The translations under genes were made by a program, and so were the position numbers. Shown here one piece after another: positions 1-15,878 of a DNA stretch of 64,000 nt. Origin of the DNA: Fibrobacterota bacterium (GTDB taxonomy: Bacteria; Fibrobacterota; Chitinivibrionia; Chitinivibrionales; FEN-1185); NCBI GenBank assembly GCA_003165595.1, contig PLWQ01000012.1, positions 269,542 to 333,541 of the forward strand, written 5' to 3'. The notes beneath the pieces are model-generated. The model did not search any database. It saw only the letters and a list, made by a program, of their open reading frames with translations, and was not told the DNA's origin. Numbering within the stretch: position 1 is the first letter of the stretch; each line of letters begins with the position of its first letter.

Positions 1-681
1 GTCAAAAAAGCTTACTGCGAGCCGGCCGACCCCCAGCGGATGCCATTTTCGGGGCCCGCCGTCCGTGCCGGCAATCAATCCCTGCGTTGGATCAAATCCT
101 CCTAGATTGTACGCCACCCCGACGAATTTTGAACCGTAAAACCCGCCGATATTCACGCCGGTTTCACGTCCGCTTGTCCTGCCTGTTAAAAAGGACCGCA
201 GGTACATGCTCGTTAACCCTTTGTCAAGAGAATTGACCCCTGCGTCGGGAGCGATGTTTTCATGTCCGCTTTGCGGCCGGAAATACCCGAAGGTGATATT
301 CGCAAACGTTGAATCAAGCGCGTAGCTCATGTACAAGTCATAGAGCTGGAAGGTGGTATTGGTGGTGGCCTGTGCAGTGCCCAGCGAACCCGTGAACTGG
401 TCTTTGCCGAGATTATCAAAGGCAAAGATAGTGGAATAGGTAAGTCCCGGGATCGCCTGCCCCTTCACGCCGACCCTGCCTTGTTTTAAAAAAAGATCGG
501 CGCACGAAGAGGTGGCAGGCACGTCATTGGGATTCTGCGTGTATGCTCCCCACAATTGGTATGATTGTGTAAGTTCGCAAGAGCTTTTCCCGTCGTTGAA
601 CGTGAGCTTAGGGCCGGCAAAAACCACACAAAAGCAAACCAAGCCAAATAGACATGCCGAAACGAAAGCGCGTGCTTTCAT
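1..681 (-). CDS. Outer-membrane anion-porin-like protein, N-terminal 227 codons (gene runs off the left edge)
   Basis: Absent from the ORF track because it has no stop in the window. Hand translation of the minus strand from ATG 681-679 gives MKARAFVSACLFGLVCFCVVFAGPKLTF..., open to position 1. It has a signal peptide. The KQGRVGVKGQ and GRLAVSFF segments resemble phosphate-selective porin O/P-type proteins. The + ORF 512..700 is its antisense shadow. Confidence 0.5.
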   Translation of the reverse strand, partial: MKARAFVSACLFGLVCFCVVFAGPKLTFNDGKSSCELTQSYQLWGAYTQNPNDVPATSSCADLFLKQGRVGVKGQAIPGLTYSTIFAFDNLGKDQFTGSLGTAQATTNTTFQLYDLYMSYALDSTFANITFGYFRPQSGHENIAPDAGVNSLDKGLTSMYLRSFLTGRTSGRETGVNIGGFYGSKFVGVAYNLGGFDPTQGLIAGTDGGPRKWHPLGVGRLAVSFFD

Positions 682-726: not shown

Positions 727-750
727 TGTTATGTAAAATATTATACAACG
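727..750. promoter_or_regulatory. ModE-operator-like inverted repeat upstream of the porin-like gene
   Basis: TGTTATGTA-AAATAT-TATACAACG. The minus-strand reading TGTAT-N7-TACAT has one mismatch to the TATAT-N7-TAYAT ModE core. It lies 46-69 nt upstream of the ATG at 681. Its right half is identical to the right half of the 12992-13015 site. Confidence 0.4.
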
Positions 751-902: not shown

Positions 903-1709
903 CTATTCGGTTACCGCAACAATGACCTGCGAGGCATTGAACACGGCGCATACCTCGCTGCCCAGGGAAAGCTTCATGCTTTCTGAGCTTTTTTTAGTGA
1001 TGGTGGCGACAATGGTCCTGTTGCCGTCGAGTGCGATCTTTATTTCGTTGTTCACAGCGCCCTTTGTTATCCAAATGACTTTTCCGCACAGACGGTTCAT
1101 GGCGCTCGTTTTGGTTTCTTCATCATCGACAACCATGAGGATCACGGCCGAAGCCTTGATAAGCGCCGTCGCTTTTCCGCCCTTCCTCAGGTCAAGCGCC
1201 CGAGCGCTTTCGTTTGTGATAACCGCCGTGATCGAGTCCTTTTCGCTGATGCGGAGCACGACTTCGGCTGATACCGGTCCACGCACTATCCTATCGATCG
1301 TGCCGGAAAACTGGTTGCGCGCGCTGGTTTTCACGATGAGGCCCCTTGCGAAATCGGTAAAAAAAGCAAAGTCGTTCTTTCTCCCGGATAGGGTTTTCGT
1401 GATAATTTCGAATTGCCGCTGCTGGTGACCGTACTCATCGAGGATCTTTTTACCGTAGTCCGACAGTCTGCATCCGCCACCGTGTCTGCCGCCCGTGCTG
1501 GTGACGACAAGCGATTTGGACGAAAGGTTGTTGAGCCTGTCGATAAGATCCCAGGCGGTCTTGTAGCTGATGCCGACTTCTTTGGCGGCCGAGGTGATCG
1601 ATCCGAGTTTGTCAACGCTTTGAAGAAGATCGATGGCGTTTTTTTCGAGCAGGTGGCGTCCACCGAACAGGAGCCACAGTGGGCCGAAAGAGGGGGAATT
1701 GGAGTTCAT
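903..1709 (-). CDS. modE: Molybdate-responsive transcriptional regulator ModE (N-terminal HTH plus two Mop/TOBE domains)
   Basis: 268 aa. The N-terminus has GSITSAAKEVGISYKTAWDLIDRLN (ModE-type HTH). The C-terminus has two repeats of the SARNQFxGTI...GPVSAEV / TSAMNRLCGKV molbindin motif. Confidence 0.9.
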   Translation of the reverse strand: MNSNSPSFGPLWLLFGGRHLLEKNAIDLLQSVDKLGSITSAAKEVGISYKTAWDLIDRLNNLSSKSLVVTSTGGRHGGGCRLSDYGKKILDEYGHQQRQFEIITKTLSGRKNDFAFFTDFARGLIVKTSARNQFSGTIDRIVRGPVSAEVVLRISEKDSITAVITNESARALDLRKGGKATALIKASAVILMVVDDEETKTSAMNRLCGKVIWITKGAVNNEIKIALDGNRTIVATITKKSSESMKLSLGSEVCAVFNASQVIVAVTE

Positions 1710-1887: not shown

Positions 1888-2316
1888 TTACTGCTTAATC
1901 GCCAGAATAACGTGCGAAGCTTTGACGAGCGCGCAAATGGTCTCGCCATTTTTCAGCTTCATGTCGTCAAGGCTTTTTTTGGTAATAGTGGCTACGATGG
2001 AATTCCCGTCGTCAAGATGTATGGTTACTTCGTCGGTCACCATGCCTTCGACGATTCCGTCCACCTTACCGCAGAACCGGTTCTTGGCGCTGGTCTTTAC
2101 ATGTTCGTCAGGTTCCATAAGAATTACCGACGAGGCCTTTATGAGAGCGGTAGCTGTATCGCCTTTCTTAAGGCCGAGGTATTGGGCGCTTTCGTTGGTG
2201 ATCACGGCTGTCACGCTGTTTTCTTTACTGATGTGCAAAACGACTTCAGCCGATACCGGACCGTGAACAACCTTTTCGATGACGCCCGTAAGTTGGTTGC
2301 GTGCGCTTGTTTTCAT
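1888..2316 (-). CDS. mop: Di-Mop molybdenum/tungsten-binding protein (molbindin, two TOBE/Mop domains)
   Basis: ORF 1888..2418 trimmed to ATG 2316, which is preceded by AAGGAG. Two repeats are present: MKTSARNQLTGVIEKVVHGPVSAEV and KTSAKNRFCGKVDGIVEG. They are paralogous to the ModE C-terminal half. Confidence 0.85.
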   Translation of the reverse strand: MKTSARNQLTGVIEKVVHGPVSAEVVLHISKENSVTAVITNESAQYLGLKKGDTATALIKASSVILMEPDEHVKTSAKNRFCGKVDGIVEGMVTDEVTIHLDDGNSIVATITKKSLDDMKLKNGETICALVKASHVILAIKQ

Positions 2317-2362
2317 GTCCTCGCTCCTTTTCTTGAAAATTGAATTAGGCCATGTGTTCGAA

Positions 2363-2387
2363 TTATCTACGCATCTTTCGTAGATAA
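2363..2387. promoter_or_regulatory. Perfect 9-bp inverted repeat upstream of mop
   Basis: TTATCTACG-CATCTTT-CGTAGATAA, 47 nt upstream of the mop ATG. The CG is on the inner side, so the architecture differs from the ModE-like boxes. Confidence 0.3.
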
Positions 2388-2950
2388 GATCAAGTAAGAG
2401 AAAGAAAGGATCTTTCAAAAGTTAACATCAGGTTAATCATTTTGCTATCCGGAGAATCCTGGTTAGGTTATTGCAAAGATAATTTTCCCTTGCAAGAATC
2501 GGTGCTTTGAGACAGGAACATTAGGCTCTTTGATTAATAACGCCGCAAATACTGGGCCACTCCCACAATCCGCAGCTATCCTTGATTTCGGTTTCTTTTC
2601 GATTAAAATTTGCAGAAATGATAAGAAACAAGCTTTACGGCACCTGACAATTCGTGCGGCCGGTGTCGACGGACCCGGATACCGGTTTCATCTGGTAGCA
2701 GGCACCAGTAGCGCATACGTCCATGACCTCGGCACGCCGACATTCTCTTCAATGTTAAGCCTGTCGGACAACGCTTCTGCTGCAAGAAACTGTTCATGAT
2801 TCAGCGAAACCTCGCCATGAACAGTTTCTAATCATTTGGAGTAGCCGCGCTAGCGAACCTTCGAGGGTATGGCAATCACTATAATGATTGGCGCGAAGCA
2901 CCATTACCATACCATAAGGTAACGAAGTGACAATGCGCTCGCTATGGGAT

Positions 2951-5137
2951 TCAATCCCAATTGAAATTCGTATGGAGGTTGACAAAGAACGTACGTCCCT
3001 CCTCCGGATATCCTGCTTCTAAAAAGTAGTTCTTATCAGAGACATTCCTTACTCCCCCCTCGAATGACGCGTTTGCACCCAGAGGAACATTTAATGATGC
3101 ATTCCAGAGAGCGTACTCGGGAACCGTTGATCCTTGACTTGTCGTATAGCGCCAAGAATCGTATTCTGCACTTATAAGGGCATAGCATCCGGTGATCGGG
3201 GTATATTTGACATATCCGACGACTTTGCCCGGAGGTATGTCGGTAAATTTGATCGCCGGATGAGAGAGGTTGTGTTTGTCTAGATAGCTGGCGTTTGCGC
3301 CAATCTCCAACGCTTTCGCCCACTCAACATCGTGAAAAACCGTAGCGTCAAGGCTCAGTTCAACTCCCGGCATCTCGGCCTCACCGGTATTCTGCATCTG
3401 TGCACGTGCATTGGCATCCAGCACGCCTGCTTTAATCACGCTGTCAACCGACTGTATCGCATCATACAAATGCGTGTAGAAAAGGCTCACATGGCCGGAT
3501 AATGACCATTTCCCCAGATTCAATCCCGCATCATAGGCCGCCTCATAATTAACGGCATCTTCAGGTTGAAGAGTAGGATTGGGAATCGCCGTGCCCAGCT
3601 TGTAGGAATATCGATCCTTGAGCGTCGGGAACCTTGTCTTGCGCGCTATCGATATACTGGCATTCTGTGAACTATTGATATCAATTGTCGCCTTGCCCTC
3701 CGCATTAAAAGCTTGGGCGTTGTTGCTCGGGAAAGGGACTATCGAGTCAAAAACATTCTGAAATATCTTACCGTTGTAATGCGAGTAGAAATTGTCCGCT
3801 TCAACACTTGACCGGTTATCATAGGAAATTCCTCCTGTCAAGTTGAGAATCTTGAGAATAGTGGCGCCGTCCTCTAAACCAAGCGAAAACGTGTTGTCCT
3901 TGAAATGCCGTAAAGGCTCTTCCTGAAACGGTTTGGTGTTGGCTACCTTGACGGTGTCGTAGGCATTATGTTCTTCATGATAGTCTCGTTTGCCGTGAAG
4001 GGCGACACTCATCTCGTTTCCCGGAATAATGGTAGTGCCGAGTTCAACGGCGCCGCCTGCTGTCCAGTCATCATAATTGCTTTTAAAAGAAGACCTTTTC
4101 TTGAATGTCGAATAGGTCGAATCGTCACAAGCGAAAAGGCTGTTGCTCAACTCATTATAATAGACCGGAACCTTGAGGGAAAAATTATCGGAAAGCACGG
4201 TTTTTGAAGACAGGTAGACGCTCTGTTTGTCCCAATAGGGCCAATACCAGTAGCGTACCATGCCCGTGGGATCGACGGTCGGCGGTACACCTTTTTCCCC
4301 ATGTTGATTATCATAGGAGAGTGCATATTCATCACCTGGCGCCGGGTCCCACCCGATTTTTGCACTCGCCTTTGCATCACGGTGATATGAATTTGCGCGT
4401 AACCCGCCACTCTGGAGCACAGTCGGGGTAAATGCTTTCGACAACTCATAATTGCCTTTGTCAAGATCGGAAATCGAGCCCATCAGAAAAAAATTACCCA
4501 ATCGAGACCCTACGCCTATGTTCATGAGACTGCCGTTTAAATGGGGCATAAGCGTTGAGTCGCGCTTGGTGTCGACATACCCCATGGTGCCCACATCCGC
4601 TTGCAGTTCGAGCTTGTGCACCGGTTTCCGGGTAACCAGATTGATCGCTCCCCCAATTGCATTCGGGCCGTAGAGTACCGAAGAATATCCTTTTTCAACC
4701 TTTATTTCCGAATAATCGAACGTCGTGAAACGTCCCAGGTCGACATATCCGTCGTACGGCACATAAATCGGAACGCCGTCGATATAGAGGGGAACCGAGC
4801 GCAGATCAAATCCTCGGATATATACTTGCGACTCGTTTCTTGGACCGATATCGGAAACGTTTACTCCGGGAAGAAGCGAAAGTGCGCGGGCAACATCGGT
4901 GCGGCCGAATTCCTTCATTTGTGCACTGGTGACAACATCCTTATTCTGTTGTTTTTTCTCGCTGCCGGTGACAACAACGGTTCCAAGCGAAAAAACCGAT
5001 GATGTATCCTGCTTGAGCGCCGTGTCACGCTGACTTGTGCCGGTAACATCAGCGGCTCTCGATGGAAATGCATTTACTATAAGGCATAATGAAAACAGGA
5101 TTAAGGAGTGATTGGTTATTGGGTGCGCACGAGACAT
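2951..5137 (-). CDS. TonB-dependent outer-membrane receptor (plug plus 22-strand barrel type), substrate unknown
   Basis: 728 aa with a signal peptide. It has a TonB-box-like LGTVVVTG and plug motifs (IRGFDLRSVPLYIDGVPIY, YGPNAIGGAINLVT). The terminal aromatic barrel end is ...NLHTNFNWD. No N-terminal STN signalling extension is present. Confidence 0.9.
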   Translation of the reverse strand: MSRAHPITNHSLILFSLCLIVNAFPSRAADVTGTSQRDTALKQDTSSVFSLGTVVVTGSEKKQQNKDVVTSAQMKEFGRTDVARALSLLPGVNVSDIGPRNESQVYIRGFDLRSVPLYIDGVPIYVPYDGYVDLGRFTTFDYSEIKVEKGYSSVLYGPNAIGGAINLVTRKPVHKLELQADVGTMGYVDTKRDSTLMPHLNGSLMNIGVGSRLGNFFLMGSISDLDKGNYELSKAFTPTVLQSGGLRANSYHRDAKASAKIGWDPAPGDEYALSYDNQHGEKGVPPTVDPTGMVRYWYWPYWDKQSVYLSSKTVLSDNFSLKVPVYYNELSNSLFACDDSTYSTFKKRSSFKSNYDDWTAGGAVELGTTIIPGNEMSVALHGKRDYHEEHNAYDTVKVANTKPFQEEPLRHFKDNTFSLGLEDGATILKILNLTGGISYDNRSSVEADNFYSHYNGKIFQNVFDSIVPFPSNNAQAFNAEGKATIDINSSQNASISIARKTRFPTLKDRYSYKLGTAIPNPTLQPEDAVNYEAAYDAGLNLGKWSLSGHVSLFYTHLYDAIQSVDSVIKAGVLDANARAQMQNTGEAEMPGVELSLDATVFHDVEWAKALEIGANASYLDKHNLSHPAIKFTDIPPGKVVGYVKYTPITGCYALISAEYDSWRYTTSQGSTVPEYALWNASLNVPLGANASFEGGVRNVSDKNYFLEAGYPEEGRTFFVNLHTNFNWD

Positions 5138-5195
5138 AGGAATCCTTTCGGAAAAGAATGGATGAAAGTCCCCGGATTAGTTGCCTGACAAATAG

Positions 5196-5219
5196 CGTTA
5201 TATATTTTTCTATATTACG
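5196..5219. promoter_or_regulatory. ModE operator-like inverted repeat upstream of the TonB-dependent receptor gene
   Basis: CGTTATATA-TTTTTC-TATATTACG. It contains an exact TATAT-N7-TATAT and has ATCG/CGCT-type flanks. It lies 59-82 nt upstream of ATG 5137, in the 124-bp gap after the DUF364 gene. Confidence 0.65.
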
Positions 5220-5261
5220 ATGAGTGACATATGACTCCTTTGAATATGTTGACGAGGATAA

Positions 5262-6068
5262 TTACTCAGAACCTTTCAGATTCACTTCCGCAGCGCCGGA
5301 TCTGTCATCGAATAGTTTAGGGGAATCAGGCCTTGTGATGTTGATTTTCTGCAATGCGCCTTGCGGAGCATGCATAATGCTGCCTCCACCCATCCCGAAA
5401 TAGCGAAGAGTTTTGTTGACATCCATGATTCGTGAAGTGCCGAGCCGATGCAGACCCAATTTGAAGAGGCTGGGCGTGAGCGGCACCGTGGGCCCCATTA
5501 TGACACGGGTTGTTGCGTTAGGGGTCCTGCAAATTACCTCCCCGAACGTCCCGTTCACGAGCGTGAGCCCGGTCATGAATACCAGTTTCGCGCGGGAAAG
5601 CACGCCATGCGAATCGTCCCAACGGATGTCCCCCGGTCTGGGCAAAAGCTCCACAATCGATACCGGCCGCCCTTCATCGCGCCACATCTCCGCATCATGA
5701 AAATGGCCGATAAAGCAGGTTGGGCGTGTCTTGGTTTGCTCGGAAAACGGGTCTATTGCCGAGCTTACCGTGAATTCGGGAACCGGTGGGATCACGCATT
5801 TCAGGCAGGCCATGCCCACGGCAATCCGAAGAACGTCCGTCGAAGCGAGGTATTCTTGCGCGATTTCCGCCGCCTTCCGTCCAATCAGATCGCCCAGCCA
5901 GGTGTCCCGGGGATTTTCCGTGAGCCCGGGAGTGGCCGAGAAGCAGGTTGACATTTCATAGCGCCCGGCTTTGACCACCACCCAGTGATGGAAGAGATGG
6001 ATGTCCTCCATCAGAGTTGAATAGTCCGTGATAGCGGAAATGAGCGTTTCACGTACAATTGTTTCCAT
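5262..6068 (-). CDS. DUF364/DUF4213-family protein (putative heavy-metal chelation Rossmann-like fold), copy 2
   Basis: 268 aa. GHFHD...ELLPRPGDIRWDD...AKLVFMTGLTLVNGTFGEVI...VIMGPTVPLTP matches the DUF364 pattern. It is paralogous to 6111..6905. Confidence 0.7.
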   Translation of the reverse strand: METIVRETLISAITDYSTLMEDIHLFHHWVVVKAGRYEMSTCFSATPGLTENPRDTWLGDLIGRKAAEIAQEYLASTDVLRIAVGMACLKCVIPPVPEFTVSSAIDPFSEQTKTRPTCFIGHFHDAEMWRDEGRPVSIVELLPRPGDIRWDDSHGVLSRAKLVFMTGLTLVNGTFGEVICRTPNATTRVIMGPTVPLTPSLFKLGLHRLGTSRIMDVNKTLRYFGMGGGSIMHAPQGALQKINITRPDSPKLFDDRSGAAEVNLKGSE

Positions 6069-6110: not shown

Positions 6111-6905
6111 TCACCTGACGTCGGCCGGATACAGCTTCACCATGTGCGCGCCCTGTTTGAAGATTGATCGGTCGCCTCCCTGCGCCACATGTTGCCAGAT
6201 CCTGTCGGCATCGATAACCGTGGTGCCGGCCAGGGACGCGATTCCTTTACTGAACCACAAAGGGGTCAGCGGGACACTCGGACCCACCATAACCATGCAG
6301 GCGTTGCGGCCCAATTCCATAAGCCGGGGCAATGTCTTGTTGGTAAACGTAACGCCGGTCATAAACAGGAAATCCTGATCTTCCAAAATGTATTCGCACG
6401 CCGGATCAGGGAAATCGCCCTCCAGGGGGTTCCGCTCCAGGATGGAAAGCCGGCACATGGTCGAAAGCTCGGCCAGGTCCGGAAAGTGACCCACCACGGT
6501 CACCTTCTTGCCGGTGAGCTCGGGTTTCATGACGATAAAGACACTCTCGTTGACCTGCGACTCCGGCTGAGTCTTCCAAACATTCGCCATAGTGGAAGGC
6601 GCATTGACATAGGCGTTGATCGCCGCAACACCAAGGGCCGCCTCATAGGGCTGCCACGACTTGACAAAAGCAGCGAGTTCACGCAACCTGCGGCCCTTGA
6701 AGGCTCCGGCGCCCGAAATGGAGTGGGAACCATGCGGAGGCGTCATGGCGACGCCAACCCCCACGGAACGCACGAGTGTCCAGTGAATGCCGACAAGCAC
6801 GTCGTCGACCACCAGGTCGTCGGGGATCAGCGAAATCAGTTGATCGTACAACTCCCACTTCGATGGAGTGGTTCCTGATGAATCGCGGGAATCCGAGTTC
6901 TTCAT
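6111..6905 (-). CDS. DUF364/DUF4213-family protein, copy 1
   Basis: 264 aa. VVGHFPDL...ILERNPLEGDFPDPACEYILEDQDFLFMTGVTFTNKTLPRLMEL...VMVGPSVPLTP. Its start overlaps the xdhC-like stop (ATGA). Confidence 0.75.
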   Translation of the reverse strand: MKNSDSRDSSGTTPSKWELYDQLISLIPDDLVVDDVLVGIHWTLVRSVGVGVAMTPPHGSHSISGAGAFKGRRLRELAAFVKSWQPYEAALGVAAINAYVNAPSTMANVWKTQPESQVNESVFIVMKPELTGKKVTVVGHFPDLAELSTMCRLSILERNPLEGDFPDPACEYILEDQDFLFMTGVTFTNKTLPRLMELGRNACMVMVGPSVPLTPLWFSKGIASLAGTTVIDADRIWQHVAQGGDRSIFKQGAHMVKLYPADVR

Positions 6906-7750
6906 TTCCCCTCCGATTTGTCAGGTGTGATGGTTCCCTCCTCATGCCAGGGAAATCTGAAATGCTCCGGCGTGCCTTTGTTGATGAGGAGGATTATCTG
7001 GGCCACTATTGCCAAAGCGATCTGCTCCGGAAGATTGTTGGCGATTTTCAAACCCACCGGCGAGTAGACCCTTTCATCAACATGTCCGCCCCTGGAACGG
7101 ATGTTGTTGACAACGATTCCGATTTTATTCTGGCTGCCGATCATGCCAATGTAGGGAACATCTTTGTTCCGAAGGATCTGTTCCAGACAAGTCTCGTCGT
7201 GTTTGTGCCCATGAGTCAGTATGACGCAGTAACTCGCACTGGTCAGCTTCATCGTCTCACTCAACGATTCATACGGTTTACATACACACTCGACTGCCGA
7301 AGGAAACCGTTCGGCGGATGAGAAATCTTCCCGGTTGTCAAACACGCGGTATGGCATATTGAGGATTTCGCAATACTTGGAAACCTTTTCACCGATATGG
7401 CCTCCGCCAAAAATCACGACTTCAGCCTCGGGCAAAACAGGCTCGATGAACACGGTTACCGATCCGCCGCAAAGGCCCTGCACCGTCCTGTCAGGTGTTA
7501 CCTGCCACAGGTCTCCCGCAAGAGAGAAATCCAAGCTGATGCAGCGGTTGTCTTTGATGGCCTTTAAAGCTTCTGCACGGCTGATGTGCTCAACCGGTCC
7601 TCCTCCGACCGAACCGGCAATCTCGTTCGCCACGCTCACCACCATCTTGGAGCCGACACCCCGTGGCACCGACCCTTCGGCCTTGACGATTGTGACGATC
7701 GCGCAGGCAATGCCCTTGTTCTTCCATTCATTCAAACTCTTGAGCCACAT
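6902..7750 (-). CDS. XdhC/CoxI-family accessory protein (molybdenum-cofactor handling family)
   Basis: ORF 6902..7789 trimmed to ATG 7750, which is preceded by AGGAG. The N-terminus has ACAIVTIVKAEGSVPRGVGSKMVV...GSVGGGPVE (XdhC_CoxI). A Rossmann-like VVIFGGGHIGEKV follows. Confidence 0.8.
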   Translation of the reverse strand: MWLKSLNEWKNKGIACAIVTIVKAEGSVPRGVGSKMVVSVANEIAGSVGGGPVEHISRAEALKAIKDNRCISLDFSLAGDLWQVTPDRTVQGLCGGSVTVFIEPVLPEAEVVIFGGGHIGEKVSKYCEILNMPYRVFDNREDFSSAERFPSAVECVCKPYESLSETMKLTSASYCVILTHGHKHDETCLEQILRNKDVPYIGMIGSQNKIGIVVNNIRSRGGHVDERVYSPVGLKIANNLPEQIALAIVAQIILLINKGTPEHFRFPWHEEGTITPDKSEGK

Positions 7751-7804: not shown

Positions 7805-8470
7805 TTACTCCATCCGATATTCCAACGGGAACTTCAAGATAACCCGTACCGGCGGATGGGGAAATGGGGCCGCCCGTCTGACCGTGGCAACGGCATCCCG
7901 ATCGAGTATCGAAGCCCCTGATCCCTTGAGTATCTCAATACTGTCAACGTCGCCGTCTTCGCGTACGCAGAATGAGAGTAAGACCGTGCCGGAGATTTTC
8001 ATTTCGAGCGCCATGGGCGGATAAACTGCTTTGCGGTAGATGATGTCCCGGATGTATTCGAACTGCTCTTTCAAATACCGCTGCCTCTCCCTCTCCCGCA
8101 CTTGGCCCGTGTCCTGCGGCATTCCTAGCGGGCCGATCGAGGCAACCTGGACCAACTGATTGTCAACTCCGCTTGGTTCGGCATCCGTGAACTGCGCCGT
8201 ATCGGCAATGATATCTTCGGCGGTTGTGTCGGGAAATTTCTCTTCTTCCTTAACCGGCGGAGGCGCGGGTCTTCTGGCGTGCCGAGGAGCCGGTTCCGGC
8301 ACGGGGACCGTTGATGCCGCCGGCTGTATCACCGGCGATTTCTCGATGTTAAAGTCGATCGTGAGCGTACGAGCCGCCGGAGCGGAAAACGCCGCAATGC
8401 CGGTAACGGCGGCGATAAAAACCCCATGGATCGTCAGCGACACAAGCGTTGCACGTTTCTGATACTTCAT
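7805..8470 (-). CDS. tonB: TonB energy transducer
   Basis: It has an N-terminal TM helix, a Pro-rich spacer (VPVPEPAPRHARRPAPPPVKEEE) and a C-terminal TonB domain (YPPMALEMKISGTVLLSFCVREDGDV...). Confidence 0.85.
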   Translation of the reverse strand: MKYQKRATLVSLTIHGVFIAAVTGIAAFSAPAARTLTIDFNIEKSPVIQPAASTVPVPEPAPRHARRPAPPPVKEEEKFPDTTAEDIIADTAQFTDAEPSGVDNQLVQVASIGPLGMPQDTGQVRERERQRYLKEQFEYIRDIIYRKAVYPPMALEMKISGTVLLSFCVREDGDVDSIEILKGSGASILDRDAVATVRRAAPFPHPPVRVILKFPLEYRME

Positions 8471-8847
8471 CGCACGGACTCCGTCTGCAAGCTGACCCGC
8501 GTGAACCCCCGGGTCTTGACGACATCGAGCACGTCCACGAACGTCTGAAGGGCAATTTTCCTGTCTGCGCGGATAAGGATCGGTGTGGACCGATCTATGT
8601 GCATGAGCGCCTCAAACAGCGCCCGTTGGCACACGGCAGAGGAGTTGTAGTAGATGGTGCCTGTGCGGTCGATCTCGATTGTCTGTATTCGCAGCAGATC
8701 CTCCCGGTTCTTGGATGCCTGCGGCAGCTGCAACGGGATGGATCCCGCCGCGACCAGCGTTGATGTGGTGAGCACGATGGTGAGCAGCACCAGCATCACG
8801 TCAACAAACGGTATCACGTTGATATAGTCGAATTCCTTTTCATCCAT
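8467..8847 (-). CDS. exbD: ExbD/TolR biopolymer transport protein
   Basis: ORF 8467..8970 trimmed to ATG 8847 ([26 protein letters not shown]...). It overlaps the exbB stop by 8 nt and the tonB start by 4 nt. Confidence 0.85.
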
Positions 8848-9262
8848 GATGAATGTCCCACTCAAGGAGCAGCCTTTTGACTTTCCGCAAAAGGAAATTA
8901 TAGAGTACCACGGACGGTATTGCGACAAGAAGGCCTGCCGCCGTCGCCTTGAGCGCCAGGGCAAGGCCAACCATGATCTTGCCCGTGTCCATGAATCCCT
9001 GGTTGCCCAGGGTGTAGAATGTCAACATGATGCCCAGCACCGTGCCCAGCAGGCCCACATACGGCGCGCTGCTGCCGATGGTGGCGATTACATGAACCCG
9101 GGACGTCAGCATGAGTTCCAGTTCCTTTTTGCTGCCAAAGTCGGCGGGCCGGATGCGGCGGTACGTGAGCCACCGTTCGATCGCCACGCTCACCGAGACT
9201 ACGCTGAGAAATACCAGAAGTCCGATGATGCCGAAGTCGATCCCGAATTTCAGCCATTCCAT
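8840..9262 (-). CDS. exbB: ExbB/TolQ/MotA-family proton channel
   Basis: 140 aa with three TM segments. The [17 protein letters not shown] signature is typical of ExbB/TolQ. Confidence 0.85.
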
Positions 9263-9292: not shown

Positions 9293-10375
9293 TCAATGCG
9301 CAAGCGCCCGTTCCAGCAGCTCCGCGCATTCCGTGTCATTGAGCTTTTTGAAATAGAACAGTTCGTAGAATCGCCTTGTTTCTGCGCGCATGTCGATCTT
9401 CATCCGGTCCGGATACAGCAGATTGGCCAGCCACCGCAGGCCGATAATACGGTTGACAGAGGGCGGCCGATCGAACCAGCCGAAGGGCAGTGATGGTATC
9501 TCGAATACCTTCTTGTTCTTTACGGCATCGAGGTTCCGCCACGCGGGGTCGGACATGATTTTTGCGAAGTTTTCCGTGCCGTGCGCGAACCCGTGGTCCA
9601 CCTGCACGATGATCATCTCCGGTTTCCACAGCAGAAGCTGCTCGAACGAGACTGCTGCGCGGCCGTACCCGCGCACCATGGGTACATCGGCCACGTTATC
9701 TCCGCCCACCATATCAAGCACCTCGGCATGCGTTGACCCCTTCGGGTCCGTTTCCAGCCCGTTGAGTCCTTCGGCGTAGTAAACCCGTATACGCTTCTGC
9801 GCCGGCATCGACGCAACGACAGCGGCGACCGTATTGAGGGTCTGCCGGCAATAACCGGCAAGGGTATCGGCGCGGCGCTCCTCACCAATGAGGCCGCCCA
9901 CAAAGCGGTACGACGTGTCAAGCGATGTCAGCCGACCGTCGACCATCACCACCGGCGTTCCAAGTTGTTTCTCCATGCGCTCCGCTGCGGAAACGTCTGT
10001 TTTGTCAATATACCCCATCGACAGAACGATGTCGGGTTTCGCCTTGATGATCACCTCGGGGTTACCGGTGGTACTTTTGCCGAACCACCCTCCGAGAAGC
10101 GGTTTTTTGTTGTACTCCTCAACAAGGAATCGTCGTTCGTCCGCGTCAGGGTTCCATGTTGTGCCGGTGATTTTGCCGGGCGCAAGTGTGTACATCAACA
10201 CCTCGCCCATCGGCGACGTCGAGTAGACGGAACGTATGGCAGAAGGAATAGTGACATGGCGGCCTGCCATGTCCACGATCGTTCTTACGGAAGGAGACCC
10301 GGCCCAGCAGGCGCCCGTTGCGAGCGCCGCGAAGACCAGCACCGGAGTCATTACGCACAGATTCTTGTTTGTCAC
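9293..10375 (-). CDS. Periplasmic binding protein of a FecB/BtuF-type (chelate) ABC importer
   Basis: 360 aa with a signal peptide. It has a class-III binding-protein layout (RIVSxxP..., KPDIVLSMG, WKPEMIIV, FEIPSLPFGWFDRPPSVNRIIGLRW). Confidence 0.85.
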   Translation of the reverse strand: MTNKNLCVMTPVLVFAALATGACWAGSPSVRTIVDMAGRHVTIPSAIRSVYSTSPMGEVLMYTLAPGKITGTTWNPDADERRFLVEEYNKKPLLGGWFGKSTTGNPEVIIKAKPDIVLSMGYIDKTDVSAAERMEKQLGTPVVMVDGRLTSLDTSYRFVGGLIGEERRADTLAGYCRQTLNTVAAVVASMPAQKRIRVYYAEGLNGLETDPKGSTHAEVLDMVGGDNVADVPMVRGYGRAAVSFEQLLLWKPEMIIVQVDHGFAHGTENFAKIMSDPAWRNLDAVKNKKVFEIPSLPFGWFDRPPSVNRIIGLRWLANLLYPDRMKIDMRAETRRFYELFYFKKLNDTECAELLERALAH

Positions 10376-11148
10376 TTAGCACCTCCCATGGCCGGAACGC
10401 ACAAAAATCGGCCTTCCGCCACTGAAATAATATCAACGTCGATCCCATACATTCTTTTGAGCAGCGTACAGGTTAGCACTTCTTTGGGTGGACCGTCGGC
10501 CGCGATGCGGCCGTCCAGCAGCGCTATCACCCGGGTGGCGCACGCGAATGCGTGGTCCGGGACATGGGTCGTGATCATCACTCCCATGTCTTGGGTTGCA
10601 AGTTCACGGATAAGATTCAGCGCCCGGATCTGGTTGCCGAAATCAAGGTGCAACGTGGGTTCGTCCATGATGAGAAATTGCGGCGACTGCGCCAGCGCGC
10701 GCGCGATCAGCACCAGTTGGCGTTCACCCCCGCTAATCTGCGCGTAGTTGCGGTCGCACAGATGACCGATATGCAGCAGGTCCATGACGCGCGCCGCTTC
10801 GCGCCTGTCATCCGCCGAGGGAATGGAGAAGGCGCCGATAAAGGGCGTCCTTCCCATGAGCACGACGTCCATGGCGCTGAAGGGAAATGGCGGGATGTGG
10901 ATCTGTGGGACATAGGCCAGCGTCCGAGCTCGTTCCCGCGTTGTGAACGTGCAGGCGGACCGCTGATCGAATTGGATATCTCCTCGCGAGGGAATGAGCC
11001 CAAGAATCGCCTTGAAAAGCGTGGTCTTGCCCGAGCCGTTGGGTCCCAGCAAGCAGACGACCTCGCCCGAATGCAACGATGCGCTGATTTCCGAAATAAC
11101 CGTGCGCGACCCGTATCCCGCCGATATGTTGCTTATCGCCAGTTTCAT
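10372..11148 (-). CDS. ABC transporter ATP-binding protein (FecE/BtuD-like)
   Basis: This is the real 258-aa product inside ORF 10372..12042 (MKLAISNISAGY...). It has Walker A GPNGSGKTT, signature ISGGERQ and Walker B LIMDEPT. ATGA overlaps occur at both ends. Confidence 0.9.
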   Translation of the reverse strand: MKLAISNISAGYGSRTVISEISASLHSGEVVCLLGPNGSGKTTLFKAILGLIPSRGDIQFDQRSACTFTTRERARTLAYVPQIHIPPFPFSAMDVVLMGRTPFIGAFSIPSADDRREAARVMDLLHIGHLCDRNYAQISGGERQLVLIARALAQSPQFLIMDEPTLHLDFGNQIRALNLIRELATQDMGVMITTHVPDHAFACATRVIALLDGRIAADGPPKEVLTCTLLKRMYGIDVDIISVAEGRFLCVPAMGGAK

Positions 11149-12308
11149 ACCCACCCCCTGCGCCCCCGGGCGAGCAGGAATACGAAAAACGGCGCGCCGA
11201 TGATCGCGGTCAGGATGCCGATGGGTATCTCGATGGGGAACGCGACGCGCGCCACGGTGTCGACGACGAGTAGGAACGTACCGCCCAGGAGCAGCGATGC
11301 GGGGAGCAGCACCGGGAAAGAGGGGCCCACCAGCATACGCGCCAGGTGCGGAACCACCAACCCGATCCAGCCGATCATACCGCTGATGGACACCGCCGCG
11401 GCGGTCATGAGCGTTGAAGACACGATCGCGATCGCCCGTATCCGACCCGCGTCCACTCCCATGGCTTTGGCTTCCTCGTCGCCGAACGAGAGTACGTTGA
11501 TCCGCCACCGCACGAGGAGTAAAGGGATTGCGCCCGCTACGGTCGCGATTGCGGCGATGCGGGCGTCGGACAAATTGACCGAGGCCAGGCTTCCCATGAG
11601 CCAATAGGTGATCGCGGGGAGCTTTGAGTATGGATCGGCGACATACTTGACAAGCGAAAGCAAGGCGGAAAACAGGGTGCCGGTCACGATGCCGCACAGT
11701 ACGAGCGTCAATGTCTTTTCTCCGCGCTTTCCGACAAAGGCGGACAGCATGACCGTGGCAAACACCGAGACAAGGCCAAAGCCAAAGGAAAAAAGCTGGA
11801 TCCCGACCACCCCGACCGAAAGCAGTATCGCCAGGGCCGCACCGAACGCCGATCCCGCGGTGACACCCAGAAGAGAAGGATCCACCATGGGGTTGCGGAA
11901 TATACCTTGGTAGCACGCGCCAGAACCCGACAGGGCCATGCCGACAAGAACCGCCGCACACATGCGCGGCAGACGGACATGGAACAAAACGGTGCTGCTT
12001 GCACCGAACACCATGGTGTCGTGGTGCCATAGTGATTTCCACACCAAGTGCAGCAGTTCACCGATACTGACGGGGTAACGTCCAACTGTCAAGGCTGCCA
12101 CGGCCATCACGCACAGGGCGATCGCCAGGCCAGCCAGAACCAGGGGTCCCTTTGGCCCCACAGAATTGACCGACTGGTTTGTTGTGCCGCCGTTCGTTCC
12201 TTTGTGCGTCTCTGCGGTCCCGGCAGTTGCCAGATGAGAATTAGCCGGTTCCGGACCATGCGGCTGATCATTCTTGACAGGCGGTTTACTCGTGGTGTTC
12301 GGTATCAT
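11145..12308 (-). CDS. FecCD/BtuC-family ABC permease
   Basis: ORF 11145..12833 trimmed to ATG 12308 (MIPNTTSKPP...). It has about 9-10 TM segments. GILTAIIGAPFFVFLLARG at the C-terminus is typical of FecCD. Confidence 0.85.
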   Translation of the reverse strand: MIPNTTSKPPVKNDQPHGPEPANSHLATAGTAETHKGTNGGTTNQSVNSVGPKGPLVLAGLAIALCVMAVAALTVGRYPVSIGELLHLVWKSLWHHDTMVFGASSTVLFHVRLPRMCAAVLVGMALSGSGACYQGIFRNPMVDPSLLGVTAGSAFGAALAILLSVGVVGIQLFSFGFGLVSVFATVMLSAFVGKRGEKTLTLVLCGIVTGTLFSALLSLVKYVADPYSKLPAITYWLMGSLASVNLSDARIAAIATVAGAIPLLLVRWRINVLSFGDEEAKAMGVDAGRIRAIAIVSSTLMTAAAVSISGMIGWIGLVVPHLARMLVGPSFPVLLPASLLLGGTFLLVVDTVARVAFPIEIPIGILTAIIGAPFFVFLLARGRRGWV

Positions 12309-12322
12309 CGAAAGTTGATGTG

Positions 12323-12874
12323 TCAATGTGCCGTGTAGTAGCTGCCAGACGAGCAGGCCATGCATACCGGCCCTTTTTCCCCGATTGTATCCTTGCCGTC
12401 GAAGACCTTTTCTCCGCACTCGACGCAGGTGACAACCCGCTTTGGCTTTCCGGGCATCTCTTCGGGCCGCAGGTTGACCTTCACTTCCCGCCATGCGAGC
12501 ATCTCTTCGTCCGGGATGTAAAGTGCCTGTCGAACCGCATCTTCGTCTTCGCCGTTGATCGTGCGATCCATGGCAACGTTTAGACGCCATGAATGGTTCG
12601 TGGTGACATTCATGAATGTCGCGGCCATCCTGCCGTAGTCCTTGAGTTTGAAGCTCCGCCGCCCCAGGCGCGTACCGGTGACCGTCTGGATGGCGTCGGC
12701 GATGCAGCGATCGTTCTCCACCACGACGATCAGGTCCTTGTAGGTGGACGGCGCCGCCAGGGACAACCCCTTGACGGCAAGGCGCACTCCCAGCACCTGC
12801 CCCATGCAGAGGTGACCGTGGAATGTGACGCATTTGTCCAGAAGCTCGCCGAGTTCTTCCTTTGTTTTGCTCAT
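12323..12874 (-). CDS. FmdE-family protein with C-terminal zinc ribbon
   Basis: ORF 12323..12892. MSKTKEEL is the likely start at 12874. It has the FHGHLCMGQVLG motif (FmdE FHGHxCPG type) and a C-terminal CVECGEKV...CMAC ribbon. Confidence 0.8.
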   Translation of the reverse strand: MSKTKEELGELLDKCVTFHGHLCMGQVLGVRLAVKGLSLAAPSTYKDLIVVVENDRCIADAIQTVTGTRLGRRSFKLKDYGRMAATFMNVTTNHSWRLNVAMDRTINGEDEDAVRQALYIPDEEMLAWREVKVNLRPEEMPGKPKRVVTCVECGEKVFDGKDTIGEKGPVCMACSSGSYYTAH

Positions 12875-12991
12875 GATATTCAGCCTCATCACACTAAGGT
12901 TATGTTACCTCATTGAAATACCTTCGGAAACAGCTCATGAATTATGTTTACCCCGAAATTGACAGAATAAGAAGACAATGTCTTGCAGTTT

Positions 12992-13015
12992 CGTAATATA
13001 CCTATTTATACAACG
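12992..13015. promoter_or_regulatory. ModE operator-like inverted repeat upstream of the fmdE-ABC-exbBD-tonB-xdhC-DUF364 operon
   Basis: CGTAATATA-CCTATT-TATACAACG, flanked by TT/AA. The minus-strand reading TGTAT-N7-TATAT has one mismatch to the core. It lies 118-141 nt upstream of ATG 12874. Its left half is identical to a half-site of the 5196-5219 box. Confidence 0.55.
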
Positions 13016-13139
13016 AAAGCACAAAAAAACTTCCGCTGCATACAGCCACGGAAGCCTTGTGTTCACTCATCAACCGCAATGATTGTCTGCGAAGCGTTGA
13101 ACACCTCGCAGGATTTGTCATATCATGAAGAAATACAAA

Positions 13140-13910
13140 TCAAGAAATGGCATCGTAGGTTGCCTTCACGGCGGCGACTAGAATAACGACAGCGAACACG
13201 CGTTGGAGCATACAGCAAGAGATCTTCTTCTCTGCTAGCGTCGCGCCGCAAAGTCCGCCGATGAGCGCAGCCCCTGCCAACGGCAAGACGATACTCAACT
13301 CAATTCCACCTCTAATTCCATGTGCTGCTAACCCAATGCCTGACAATGCTAATACCAGGACGGAATTCATTGCAGCCATCTGTTTTGGTCCTGCCAATCC
13401 GAGAAATAGAATGAGCGGCCCGAGAAACACGCCGCCCCCAATTCCCAGGAAACCTGAAAGGAACCCGATAACAAGCCCTGCCGGGATTCCTATTAAGAAA
13501 AGACGAAGACGCCCCGGATCTTTTTCCTGCTCTTGAGCATTTGGCGCAGCTCGAAACATCGCGATGGCGGCGATTGCAAGGGTTGCCGCCAATAATGCAA
13601 AAAATATCTTCCGATCGGCTGTTATGAATCCACCCAGGAATGCAGCCGGCATGGCGGGTAATAAAAACGGCAGGATAAGTCTCCAATTCAAACGTCCGGC
13701 CAAACCGAAACGCAGTAATGCCGCCCCCGTCACTACAATGTTTAACAACAAGACAGTTGGCGTCATTGCAGCAGCGGACATTCCACAGAGGGACAAGATG
13801 GCAAGATATCCTGTGCCGCCACCGAGGCCGACGGATGCATATGCCCCGGCAACAACCATAACCAAAGGCACTAGAAGTAGAAAAGTCCCAAGCGTCAATG
13901 TATCTGACAT
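13140..13910 (-). CDS. TauE/SafE (TSUP) family anion permease
   Basis: 256 aa with about 8 TM segments. It shows a Gly-rich internal duplication (GLGGGTGYLAILSL / GIGGGVFLGPLILFL). Confidence 0.85.
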   Translation of the reverse strand: MSDTLTLGTFLLLVPLVMVVAGAYASVGLGGGTGYLAILSLCGMSAAAMTPTVLLLNIVVTGAALLRFGLAGRLNWRLILPFLLPAMPAAFLGGFITADRKIFFALLAATLAIAAIAMFRAAPNAQEQEKDPGRLRLFLIGIPAGLVIGFLSGFLGIGGGVFLGPLILFLGLAGPKQMAAMNSVLVLALSGIGLAAHGIRGGIELSIVLPLAGAALIGGLCGATLAEKKISCCMLQRVFAVVILVAAVKATYDAIS

Positions 13911-13933: not shown

Positions 13934-14830
13934 TTATTTGCTTGCTTTTTGCTTGCCGGTCACCGCAAGGGGAAAGTTGGTCTGGCGTTTGAATTTTTGT
14001 ACGCCGGAATTGGCTATGTACTCCTGTATTTTCGGGGAAGTCAGATACCCTATGAAAGTCATTGCATCAACGTAATGGGCGTCCGGATATTTCTGCGGGT
14101 TTGCAGCCAGGACCTCATAGGCGGTTACCAGCTTATTGTCCATGTTACCGTCGACCATGACGTTCATATCAAGGGTTTCCTGCTGTTGTATGAATGAAGG
14201 ATAATGGACAATCGTATATCCCCTCTTTCTATTCGCTATCACGAGGGTCGCGTCCGTGCCGGCATTTGTTGTGATATACCAGTCGCCCTTTGGCTCAATC
14301 TTCGCCAGTTTCCACATTTTCATTTCCAATCCGTAAGTGCCGGAGTTGTCTCCCCGGGAGAAAAACAGCGCTTTCTTCTTTGCTATAATTTTGAGCGCCT
14401 CGGTCGGGTCTTTCATTCCCCTTATACCCGCCGGGTCTTCCTTGGGACCGACAATCGCGAAGATCGAATACATCACTTCTCTTAAATTGACCAAATATCC
14501 GTCGGCTACGAGTTTGTTTTCAATATCCTTTTCGTGCCCTATAAAAACATCTATTGGTTGCGCACTGTCGGAACGCATGAGTTTGTCCCCGTCTCCGGTG
14601 CACAAGTTTAATTTCTTAATGGGTATGTTGTACTCTTTTGTGAACATGCCGATGAGTTCATCCGGCAGTTCGGTGGAGCAAAGGGTGGCTGGGAAAATTA
14701 CTGCGAGCGTTTTTGAATCTCTTGATTCCGGAGGGGTTGGTTGAGCCGACATCACGGGTAAACCCGCCAAGGATATCAGGACTGCTGAAAAACATAACAA
14801 CCTGATACCTGAGACTTTGCCTCTAAGCAT
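13934..14830 (-). CDS. TupA-like periplasmic substrate-binding protein (PBP-like_2 family), orphan
   Basis: 298 aa with a signal peptide. FFSRGDNSGTYGLEMKMWK resembles the SRGDxSGTHxxExxLW motif of tungstate-binding TupA. The N-terminal anion-binding TTTS/DSGL motif is not conserved (ATLCSTELPDEL). No tupBC genes are adjacent. Confidence 0.6.
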   Translation of the reverse strand: MLRGKVSGIRLLCFSAVLISLAGLPVMSAQPTPPESRDSKTLAVIFPATLCSTELPDELIGMFTKEYNIPIKKLNLCTGDGDKLMRSDSAQPIDVFIGHEKDIENKLVADGYLVNLREVMYSIFAIVGPKEDPAGIRGMKDPTEALKIIAKKKALFFSRGDNSGTYGLEMKMWKLAKIEPKGDWYITTNAGTDATLVIANRKRGYTIVHYPSFIQQQETLDMNVMVDGNMDNKLVTAYEVLAANPQKYPDAHYVDAMTFIGYLTSPKIQEYIANSGVQKFKRQTNFPLAVTGKQKASK

Positions 14831-15878
14831 GAATCCTCCCTGTTTTTACAGAACAGATTTGATTATTTCCGTTCAAAGGCCCGAATCCCTGTTCGTTGAG
14901 CCCTTTTTCCTGCCAGAAAACACGCACTTTGAATTTATTTTCGTTAGCCTCTTTGCCGAAAAGCTGCAGGTGATCCGCCTTTTTCCCAGGGGTATATTCA
15001 GAAGCGTAAATACAATCGCAGAGGGACTGAACAGCCGCATATATCTTCTGCTTGACGGCAGTACTCTTTTCGGATTCTGATTCGACAGCCGTCATTTGTT
15101 GCTGATACGTTATTCTGCCATTTTCAGCTAATACCGTCTTTTGCCCTTTATTCAGTACTATTTCTTCTAAGGGATATTTAATTACTAATTTCCCCTCAAA
15201 CACGATGCAGGTCGTTTCCGTTTTTAATACACCATTTTCCAGTCTCGCGACCGTTTGTATCTTTGAATTTGTATTCCTTGAAAGTAATAATCCGTCGGGA
15301 GTCTCAATCTGAAGTTCTTTATCTCCCGACAGAAGCGATATTTCCCCACGCGATAATGCTATGTGCCGTGAGCCTTTAACCCTGACCATCGTATTATGGT
15401 GAATCTGTAATTCGTTTTTGCTTTCCAGACTTATGGCTGCAGTGGTACTGTCTCCCGTATATAACTCGTCGCCCGACTTAATATTTTCAAATTGCGCGAT
15501 TTTGAACCTTTCCGACAGATTTTCAACATACCCTATATTCTTGTTGGCCAGGCACGCGTATGACAATATGGCAACCAGCAGCACAAAAAAGCCGGCAAGA
15601 GCAGGCCTTAGCTTGGGGTTGAATAGGGGTCTGAATATGGAACGAGGTTCTTTACTTGTTGATTGATTAAGACTATCCAATATTCTCTTTTCAATATTCG
15701 GCAGAACATCTTCAGGAGCCTTCTCCAGCGAACCTTTCTGGGAGCCGAGAGCCAAGATAAACTGGTGGAAATTCTTGCATTCTTTGCAATCACTCAGGTG
15801 TTCTTGTATTTCGATCGGCACAACAGTATCACTAAGATCATTCTCCTTTAGATACTTTTCAAAAATATCACATTTCAT
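14823..15878 (-). CDS. Anti-sigma factor (zf-HC2 N-terminus, one TM, FecR-like periplasmic domain)
   Basis: HLSDCKECKNFH is a zinc-finger motif. A TM helix follows at ALAGFFVLLVAILSY, then a beta-rich FecR-like region. Its stop overlaps the next gene's start (ATGCTTAG). Confidence 0.75.
   Translation of the reverse strand: MKCDIFEKYLKENDLSDTVVPIEIQEHLSDCKECKNFHQFILALGSQKGSLEKAPEDVLPNIEKRILDSLNQSTSKEPRSIFRPLFNPKLRPALAGFFVLLVAILSYACLANKNIGYVENLSERFKIAQFENIKSGDELYTGDSTTAAISLESKNELQIHHNTMVRVKGSRHIALSRGEISLLSGDKELQIETPDGLLLSRNTNSKIQTVARLENGVLKTETTCIVFEGKLVIKYPLEEIVLNKGQKTVLAENGRITYQQQMTAVESESEKSTAVKQKIYAAVQSLCDCIYASEYTPGKKADHLQLFGKEANENKFKVRVFWQEKGLNEQGFGPLNGNNQICSVKTGRIHA

Follow-up and report, generated by a model that had tools for sequence, protein, structure and literature searches.

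Organisation of the locus

All of the genes between position 1 and approximately 12.9 kb of the window (by which we mean the whole 64-kb stretch of DNA that was analysed) lie on the minus strand and make up one cluster, which carries three predicted ModE operator boxes (Table 1). In the order of transcription the cluster reads box 2, FmdE, FecCD permease, ATPase, Peripla_BP_2, ExbB, ExbD, TonB, XdhC, two DUF364 genes, box 1, the TonB-dependent receptor, a di-TOBE protein, ModE, box 3 and a truncated gene. Box 1 lies in an intergenic gap of 36% GC that measures 124 bp, since the open reading frame upstream of the receptor ends at position 5262. Within the upstream operon, neighbouring genes either overlap or are separated by 16-42 nt and, because of this, we infer that the box-bearing gap contains an internal promoter for the receptor gene.

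The predicted receptor has a hydrophobic N-terminal leader followed by a TonB-box-like segment, VFSLGTVVVTG. Domain matches are found for both the N-terminal plug and the 22-strand barrel of a TonB-dependent receptor, and a Ton complex (ExbB-ExbD-TonB) is encoded in the adjacent operon. No substrate-defined subfamily could be assigned to it, all of the NCBIfam matches being far below their cut-offs (the best, TonB-hemin, scores 114 against 317 bits), and in a search of solved structures the plug domain alone finds a match (BtuB, 6e-12), with nothing informative on the substrate. Among the neighbouring genes, members of the DUF364 family are found beside molybdenum, tungsten and vanadium transporters (PMC2954201), one that lies in a mod operon is cofit with nifH (bioRxiv 10.1101/2024.03.05.583561), and the sole characterised member acts on methyl-SAM (PMC12930334).

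Directly ahead of box 2, on the minus strand between 13140 and 16511, lie genes for an ECF sigma factor, a FecR-like protein, a TupA-like protein and a TauE/SafE permease. Elsewhere in the window there are genes for RND efflux, a haem-copper oxidase, a MatE transporter and large PAS/GAF sensor kinases. At 17553-18335, again on the minus strand, lies the gene for a multihaem c-type cytochrome that has MtrC/MtrF-like domains and the Geobacter CxxxxCH...CXXCH motif. This motif at first raised the possibility of a Desulfuromonadales origin, which was rejected once the best genome match turned out to be labelled Fibrobacterota (an uncultured MAG, 87-90% nucleotide identity).

Table 1. Coordinates of the genes and predicted operator boxes in and beside the cluster, with the matches that support each assignment
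Feature	Position	Strand	Supporting match or remark
Signal-peptide protein, 5' part, runs off the window	1..681	-	83% identical to the L006 441-aa protein (L006 15800-17125)
ModE operator box 3 (predicted, weaker)	727..750	.	Third PWM match, 14.8 bits (scored over 725-752)
modE, full length, winged helix-turn-helix and two TOBE/Mop domains	903..1709	-	TOBE 8.5e-30; HTH_1; NF007957 1e-45; ModE_repress; Mop
di-TOBE (Mop/molbindin-like) protein	1888..2418	-	TOBE 2.5e-34; Mop domain 8e-40
TonB-dependent receptor, 728 aa, directly downstream of box 1	2951..5137	-	Plug PF07715 2.6e-23; beta-barrel PF00593 4.1e-23
ModE operator box 1 (predicted)	5196..5219	.	Second E. coli PWM match, 24.8 bits (scored over 5194-5221), no shuffle as high
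DUF364/DUF4213 protein, last gene of upstream operon	5262..6068	-	Domain match
DUF364/DUF4213 protein, second	6111..6905	-	Domain match
XdhC-family molybdenum-cofactor chaperone	6902..7750	-	XdhC_C 1.2e-32; XdhC_rel_AOR 1e-58, below cut-off
TonB	7805..8470	-	TonB_C 1.1e-16
ExbD	8467..8847	-	ExbD 6.2e-22; start codon matches the 126-aa gene in L001
ExbB	8840..9262	-	MotA_ExbB 5.1e-29
Periplasmic binding protein, BtuF/FhuD class	9293..10375	-	Peripla_BP_2
ABC transporter ATPase	10372..11148	-	ABC_tran 1.5e-26
FecCD/BtuC-type permease	11145..12308	-	FecCD 5.1e-80
FmdE-domain protein, first gene after box 2	12323..12874	-	FmdE 8.6e-26
ModE operator box 2 (predicted)	12992..13015	.	Top PWM match, 25.1 bits (scored over 12990-13017)
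TauE/SafE permease	13140-13910	-	Beside box 2
TupA-like tungstate-type binding protein	13934-14830	-	NF041772 8e-32, below cut-off
FecR-like protein, weak	14823-15878	-	Beside box 2
ECF sigma factor	15936-16511	-	Beside box 2

A ModE regulator in the same cluster

The modE gene lies 3.4 kb from box 1 and its product shares 36% identity with E. coli ModE along the entire protein (E 6e-31), the best solved structures for it being 1O7L and 1B9M. The molybdate ligands of the E. coli protein are S126, R128, T163, S166, K183 and A184 (PMC11672702), and in a pairwise alignment all six of these (6/6) are kept in the ModE of the window, as is the GISYKxAWD recognition region. A cognate ModE, with a predicted DNA-binding domain and predicted molybdate-binding TOBE domains, is thus encoded in the same genome as the box, as an operator of this kind would require.

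Box 1 conforms to the E. coli type of ModE operator

The plus strand reads AGCGTTATATATTTTTCTATATTACGAT at 5194-5221 and, on the gene (minus) strand, box 1 reads ATCGTAATATA-GAAAAA-TATATAACGCT. The original prediction described an exact TATAT-N7-TATAT core with CG-flanked arms, and this is what the sequence contains: the core occupies 5199-5215, and 8 of 9 positions are symmetric between the 9-bp arms CGTTATATA and CGTAATATA. The predicted placement also agrees with the open reading frames of Table 1, since a receptor frame that begins with the ATG at 5137 puts the box 59-82 nt upstream of that codon, within the 124-bp gap, and the centre of the box 70 nt from it.

The published consensus for ModE binding is ATCGCTATATA-N6-TATATAACGAT (PMC2700814, PMC545781), from which box 1 departs at 3 of 22 positions. 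The real E. coli operators depart from it at 2-5, and the fit of box 1 equals or betters that of the modA, moaA and dmsA operators. We also scanned the 64 kb for a degenerate ModE pattern of the CGnTATATA-N6-TATATAnCG form, CGNNATATA-N6-TATATNNCG, allowing at most two mismatches; two matches were found where 0.07 would be expected, and box 1 matches without a mismatch.

For a more quantitative comparison, a symmetric 28-column position weight matrix (PWM) was built solely from four E. coli K-12 operators, each located in the fetched promoter: modA (CGTTATATTGTCGCCTACATAACG), moaA (CGCTATATACATGATTACATAGCG), dmsA (CGCTATATAGGCTTGTATACATCG) and napF (CGCTATATAAATATATTTATAACC). In a scan of the window with this matrix, the first three ranks fall to boxes 2, 1 and 3 (Table 1) and the fourth rank scores only 4.1 bits; no further matches occur in the rest of the 64 kb. 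Among 20000 dinucleotide-preserving shuffles of the 36%-GC gap, not one reached the 24.8 bits of box 1, nor did any of 200 shuffles of the whole window. When each E. coli operator is left out in turn, the real operators score 17.9-29.7 bits and box 1, with the same three-site matrices, 19.3-27.2 bits. The background for these figures comes from 64 kb of the genome only and is not genome-wide. A matrix score no better than that of shuffled AT-rich intergenic sequence had been named in advance as grounds for abandoning the operator reading; the shuffles never score as high, and the objection fails.

A palindrome in a gap of 36% GC, with TATAAT-like hexamers inside it, might nevertheless be the product of chance, or might be a generic promoter element (a -10 or UP-like run of TATA) with no dedicated regulator. 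We regard this as very unlikely indeed, given the outcome of both sets of shuffles, the excess of pattern matches over expectation, the conserved CG flanks and symmetric arms and the roughly 160-fold enrichment of such sites upstream of homologous receptors that is described below. Extremely unlikely, too, is a role for the repeat in RNA, where it might form a terminator or attenuator hairpin, either closing the DUF364 operon or within the leader of the receptor transcript. The position of an inverted repeat between two co-directional genes would suit such a hairpin, but the predicted fold of -8.7 kcal/mol has a z-score of -0.19 and is matched by 83 of 200 shuffles, and in other loci the same motif is found upstream of the first genes of operons and after regulator genes. 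No terminator was called in the gap. One tRNA apart, a search of the window and of the related loci L002, L005 and L006 gave no Rfam match at gathering score; the Moco RNA motif has no match there, and control by a Moco riboswitch was rejected.

As a DNA element, then, box 1 is, to judge from its sequence, an unexceptional, high-quality example of the ModE operators of E. coli type, and the 24-base palindrome at 5196-5219 is very probably a ModE binding site, although there are no binding data.

Boxes 2 and 3 and the mod operon of a sister genome

The only PWM matches comparable to box 1 precede the neighbouring transport operon and a probable mod operon. Box 2 precedes the FmdE gene, the first of the transport operon, by approximately 130 nt and has one mismatch to the degenerate pattern; box 3 is placed between the stop codon of modE and the gene that starts at 681. 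The nature of this last gene, of which the window contains only a part, can be judged from the best genome match, L006, an uncultured Fibrobacterota MAG with 87-90% nucleotide identity to the window. There, an operon that encodes a TupA-like binding protein, a 441-aa protein, modA, modB and modC (modA matching TIGR01256 at 2.4e-52, above the cut-off) is preceded by the box AGTTATATAATTTATTATATTACG at 14818-14841. By comparison with this arrangement, the gene at 1-681 is probably the first gene of a mod operon, whose modABC genes themselves would lie beyond the edge of the window. The L006 receptor is likewise preceded by a box, CGTAATATAAAAAAACATATTACG, and a counterpart of box 2 is found at 2088-2111, ahead of the FmdE operon.

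With box 3 and its L006 ortholog, this lineage has the motif at its canonical molybdate-transport operon too. One motif at the mod operon, the receptor and the transport operon of this lineage is the picture that is expected of a ModE regulon.

Two further features of these genomes deserve mention. The 441-aa signal-peptide protein, which has no Pfam or NCBIfam match, stands directly before modA in L006 and behind a ModE box in both genomes, and it could form an outer-membrane channel that serves the mod system. Between the receptor gene and that for the 441-aa protein (2419-2950 in the window, 12188-15800 in L006) the two genomes differ, although the flanks are 87-90% identical: the window has approximately 530 bp without a convincing open reading frame, followed by the di-TOBE gene and modE, whereas L006 has a second Peripla_BP_2 gene, two methyltransferases and the TupA-like binding protein.

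Conservation of the box upstream of related receptors

Box 1 is kept in L006, L093, L001, L094, L114 and L002/L003. The receptors of L001, L006, L093 and L094 are 86-90% identical to that of the window and the receptor of L114 is 69% identical, with the box approximately 71 nt before the start in all five. In the closest relatives (87-90% identity), however, conservation of the entire gap is about equal to that of coding sequence and, for this reason, footprinting at that distance is uninformative. More can be learned from L002/L003, labelled Fibrobacterota/Chitinispirillaceae, which have a receptor that is 46% identical; the gene order in L002 is a full-length ModE, two DUF364 genes, the box CGTAATATGAAAAATTATATATCG, the receptor, FmdE, a second receptor, FecCD, ATPase, binding protein, TonB, XdhC and Mop. 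Here the box ends 11 nt before the ATG and the remaining intergenic sequence is unrelated to that of the window. The receptor of L005 (44% identical) is accompanied by a 116-aa regulator with the ModE DNA-binding domain only (TIGR00637, 1.3e-26), and two variant boxes (CGTTATTCAT...) are followed by the receptor, an ABC importer, XdhC and two DUF364 genes. Weaker boxes also occur in the clade: the left arm is degenerate in L001, L094 and L114, L088 retains one half-site only and L089 has a spacing of 5 nt.

The L005 boxes lie in two copies of a direct repeat of approximately 36 nt (tttttttaccaccgttattcatt...), at 9705-9745 and 9945-9982, each with a variant box CGTTATTCAT-N4-ATGAACAACG. The repeats sit between the gene for the ModE-N-only regulator and the receptor gene.

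Receptor homologs at 38-49% identity, most of them from Bacteroidota, often have the palindrome shortly ahead of the start codon. Two collection scans gave some 160 further receptor loci, mostly from Bacteroidota, at 38-44% identity, and these were scanned with the E. coli PWM. In the approximately 350 nt upstream of the receptor, 35 of 146 non-redundant distant loci have a match of at least 15 bits and 50 of 146 one of at least 10 bits. Matches of at least 15 bits number 37 in 51 kb of upstream sequence against 11 in the other 2.4 Mb, a density ratio of approximately 160, and several of the 11 outside matches also fall at the start of the receptor or ahead of a ModE or DUF364 gene. When 48 boxes upstream of homologs are combined, their consensus, tTCGTTATATaTttaAAtATATAACGA, is essentially that of E. 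coli, and conservation across these boxes resides in the CG flanks and symmetric arms and not in one single hexamer. Furthermore, 67 of 147 loci have a gene of the ModE type (ModE or ModE-N) within the 900 nt that precede the receptor; in the one example that was checked, L076 from Dyadobacter arcticus, the product matches ModE_repress (6e-24) and has no TOBE domain.

The company that the receptor keeps varies between loci. L013, L034, L039 and L055 (10001-15300 in each) carry, on one strand, the box, the receptor, an MbnH-like di-haem enzyme, a protein of approximately 168 aa with an Oxidored_molyb domain, and modA-modB. In some other homolog loci the receptor is paired with FmdE, Peripla_BP_2 and FecCD. 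The pattern of box, ModE and mod genes across the family makes box 1 one instance of a recurrent association between these receptors and the regulation and transport of molybdenum.

Several variations on this pattern were seen. In L013, L034, L039 and L055, and in L076 at 9565-13616, a DNA-binding-only regulator of the ModE type heads the operon of box, receptor, di-haem enzyme and Oxidored_molyb protein. FmdE, Peripla_BP_2 and FecCD directly follow the receptor in L152, L162, L167, L145, L141, L165, L147, L160, L133 and L085, which have 38-41% identity and include a Syntrophobacter MAG, so that the pairing of receptor and FmdE is conserved outside the clade of the window; several of these loci have strong ModE-like boxes. 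In the Flavobacterium loci L008, L009, L011, L023, L025 and L102, just upstream of the receptor start (at approximately 9790-9990), a variant palindrome, CAGTATTCA-N6-ACATACTG, occupies the position that the CGTTAT...ATAACG box has in other genera, which suggests a diverged operator for a diverged regulator.

The cluster resembles, in the family names of its genes, an iron, haem or B12 uptake locus, and several metalloregulators share AT-rich palindromes. It might therefore be supposed that box 1 belongs to another regulator, such as Fur, the usual controller of receptor and FecCD-type clusters, or a different winged-helix protein, and that its likeness to a ModE site is coincidental. This is very unlikely: the CG-flanked CGTTAT-N12-ATAACG frame is that of ModE, genes for ModE or ModE-N are adjacent to so many of the homologous receptors, and the top PWM matches of the window all lie beside modE. 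As for Fur, its best box in the gap has 9 of 19 mismatches and those in the other two box-bearing gaps 7-8, which is no better than shuffles. A Fur-regulated iron uptake locus was rejected, no Fur box having been found at the promoter when the three gaps were scanned against shuffles.

Taken together, the PWM and consensus scores, the nearby modE, the local regulon and the conservation in orthologs support the likeness to E. coli ModE operators that was proposed from the sequence alone. We consider it likely that box 1 is a functional ModE operator controlling the receptor, with the binding of ModE being inferred.

A model for the regulation of the receptor

In the model that we propose, box 1 would be an operator for the nearby ModE and one of three in a 13-kb molybdenum-acquisition cluster. 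Box 3 would serve the probable mod operon, box 1 the receptor, and box 2 the operon FmdE-FecCD-ATPase-binding protein-ExbB-ExbD-TonB-XdhC-DUF364-DUF364. When molybdate or tungstate is plentiful, it would bind the TOBE domains of the ModE dimer, and the loaded dimer would sit on the palindrome and block the receptor's own promoter in the 124-bp gap. When the metal is scarce, ModE would come off the DNA, and the cell would produce the receptor along with the Ton system and inner-membrane importer that are dedicated to it; the receptor would then carry a molybdenum or tungsten species across the outer membrane.

The direction of this control is argued from position and from precedent. In L002, L005 and L076 the end of the box is 5-25 nt away from the start codon that follows, and TAnnTTTG, which is the -7 promoter motif of Bacteroidetes, is embedded in 15 of 48 Bacteroidota boxes. 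A box close to a start codon, or one that holds a -7 motif, fits occlusion of a promoter and not activation. Uptake genes, the mod operon foremost among them, are the classic repressed targets of ModE (PMC11672702) and, for these reasons together, repression is favoured. A scan of the gene strand of the window's gap with sigma-70 and Bacteroidetes patterns found no promoter, and the site cannot be placed relative to a transcription start; because of this, activation is retained as a minority rival. By this account the site would be a genuine ModE site at which ModE acts as a molybdate-dependent activator, and the receptor would be produced in the presence of molybdenum, for instance for cofactor-related traffic and not for scavenging. 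E. coli ModE is annotated as a dual regulator and activates moaA, dmsA and napF, the site centre at 70 nt from the ATG leaves space for a downstream promoter, no promoter overlapping the box was found, and XdhC, a cofactor-handling gene, is in the cluster. However, boxes that abut start codons or contain a -7 motif, as in the distant orthologs, are incompatible with class I or class II activation, uptake components dominate the cluster, and the same type of box lies ahead of the mod operon, a textbook repressed target. We therefore think activation unlikely, though less so than the other alternatives considered here.

Repression by molybdate-loaded ModE, lifted by molybdenum scarcity, remains the most likely reading. 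What has been observed is the site, its significance, a cognate regulator with intact ligand residues, a local three-site regulon and conservation in the receptor family; the binding, the choice of repression over activation, the internal promoter and the substrate are all inferred. Two further points count against this model. An importer of the BtuCDF type would not be expected for an oxyanion, and the receptor could be transcribed by read-through from the upstream operon.

Comparison with known systems

The operators of modABC, moaA, dmsA and napF in E. coli share with box 1 the 24-bp CG-flanked inverted repeat and its spacing, and the two regulators share their architecture and molybdate ligands. 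A mod-type operon carries a box in E. coli, as the probable one beside modE does in the window. The target differs, being a TonB-dependent receptor that has a Ton system of its own and a BtuCDF-type importer, and no ModE target in E. coli is known among these; the host, a Fibrobacterota relative, differs as well, and at these genes the binding is inferred. The predicted ModE regulon of Geobacter sulfurreducens has the arrangement modE-[site]-modDABC (PMC545781, PMC2700814), and there, as at box 3, a box of the E. coli type follows directly on modE and precedes a molybdate transport operon. The published list of Geobacter sites, however, is without a TonB-dependent receptor, and the sites of the window fit the consensus better.

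The original prediction held that molybdenum-responsive control of a TonB-dependent receptor would be unusual, and this stands only in part. A ModE operator at a TonB-dependent receptor, or a molybdenum-specific receptor, is not described in the full-text literature that was searched; subscription papers and RegPrecise were not covered and an earlier description is not excluded. Within the receptor family, on the other hand, the link to ModE is common, and Azotobacter vinelandii provides a precedent through VnfA1, an activator of sigma-54 promoters that is repressed by ModE and that activates three receptor/ABC operons only in the absence of both molybdenum and vanadium (PMC9542535). In Azotobacter, as would be the case in our model, TonB-dependent receptors with ABC importers are switched on when molybdenum is scarce, with ModE at the top, but the control in Azotobacter is indirect, by way of VnfA1, whereas the predicted operator of the window lies directly at the receptor gene.

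Dedicated pairs of metalloregulator and receptor include Fur and the siderophore receptors, Zur with ZnuD or CntO, and NikR with FrpB4. In these pairs, as in our model, a metal-loaded repressor sits on a palindrome at the receptor promoter and starvation derepresses the gene; the model differs in that the sensed metal would be an oxyanion, molybdate or tungstate, and the regulator ModE. The MbnT-MbnP-MbnH copper uptake systems, which we take to be the 'metallo-mystery pair' systems of family TIGR04039, resemble the Bacteroidota homologs, in which the receptor is followed by a di-haem enzyme of the MbnH family and a small periplasmic protein. In the Bacteroidota loci, however, the partner is not MbnP but has an Oxidored_molyb domain, the regulator resembles ModE, and modAB are often the next genes. 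The Bacteroidota receptor operon with the MbnH-family enzyme looks like a 'metallo-mystery pair' system whose metal may be molybdenum. The cluster of the window itself is without a pair of the MbnH/MbnP type.

Candidate substrates and significance

The partners of the receptor family are ModABC in Bacteroidota and a chelate-type importer in the window and, with DUF364 and FmdE alongside, a free oxyanion and a molybdenum or tungsten chelate or pterin-like compound both stay open as substrates. We put forward, tentatively and with somewhat more doubt than confidence, the wider proposal that the family, in Fibrobacterota and many Bacteroidota, is a TonB-energised outer-membrane importer of molybdenum or tungsten, as oxyanion or chelate, under the direct control of ModE. 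In Bacteroidota it would feed ModABC. In the lineage of the window it would feed the BtuCDF-type importer, with FmdE, XdhC and the two DUF364 proteins as partners that make or unload a molybdenum or tungsten chelate or pterin-type compound. Both the substrate and the binding of ModE are inferences in this proposal.

What appears to be new is a known type of operator at a new class of target, one that appears to define a molybdenum-linked receptor family. To our knowledge, it is not settled how molybdate passes the outer membrane at the picomolar to nanomolar levels of many soils and fresh waters, and we know of no receptor that has been identified for molybdenum chelates. A receptor family that is found repeatedly behind a ModE box and beside a ModE-type regulator, sometimes sharing an operon with modAB, is a concrete candidate for the outer-membrane step, and the recurrence of the pairing of ModE box and receptor in many related bacteria suggests an undescribed, energy-driven route of molybdenum uptake. 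The idea is directly testable, since several carriers are in culture, among them Dyadobacter arcticus DSM 102865, Spirosoma endophyticum DSM 26130, Olivibacter domesticus DSM 18733 and Chryseolinea sp. T2. If it is true, the FmdE and DUF364 proteins would have a molybdenum-related role, and the ModE regulon would extend to the Fibrobacterota-Bacteroidota group, including regulators that possess a DNA-binding domain only.
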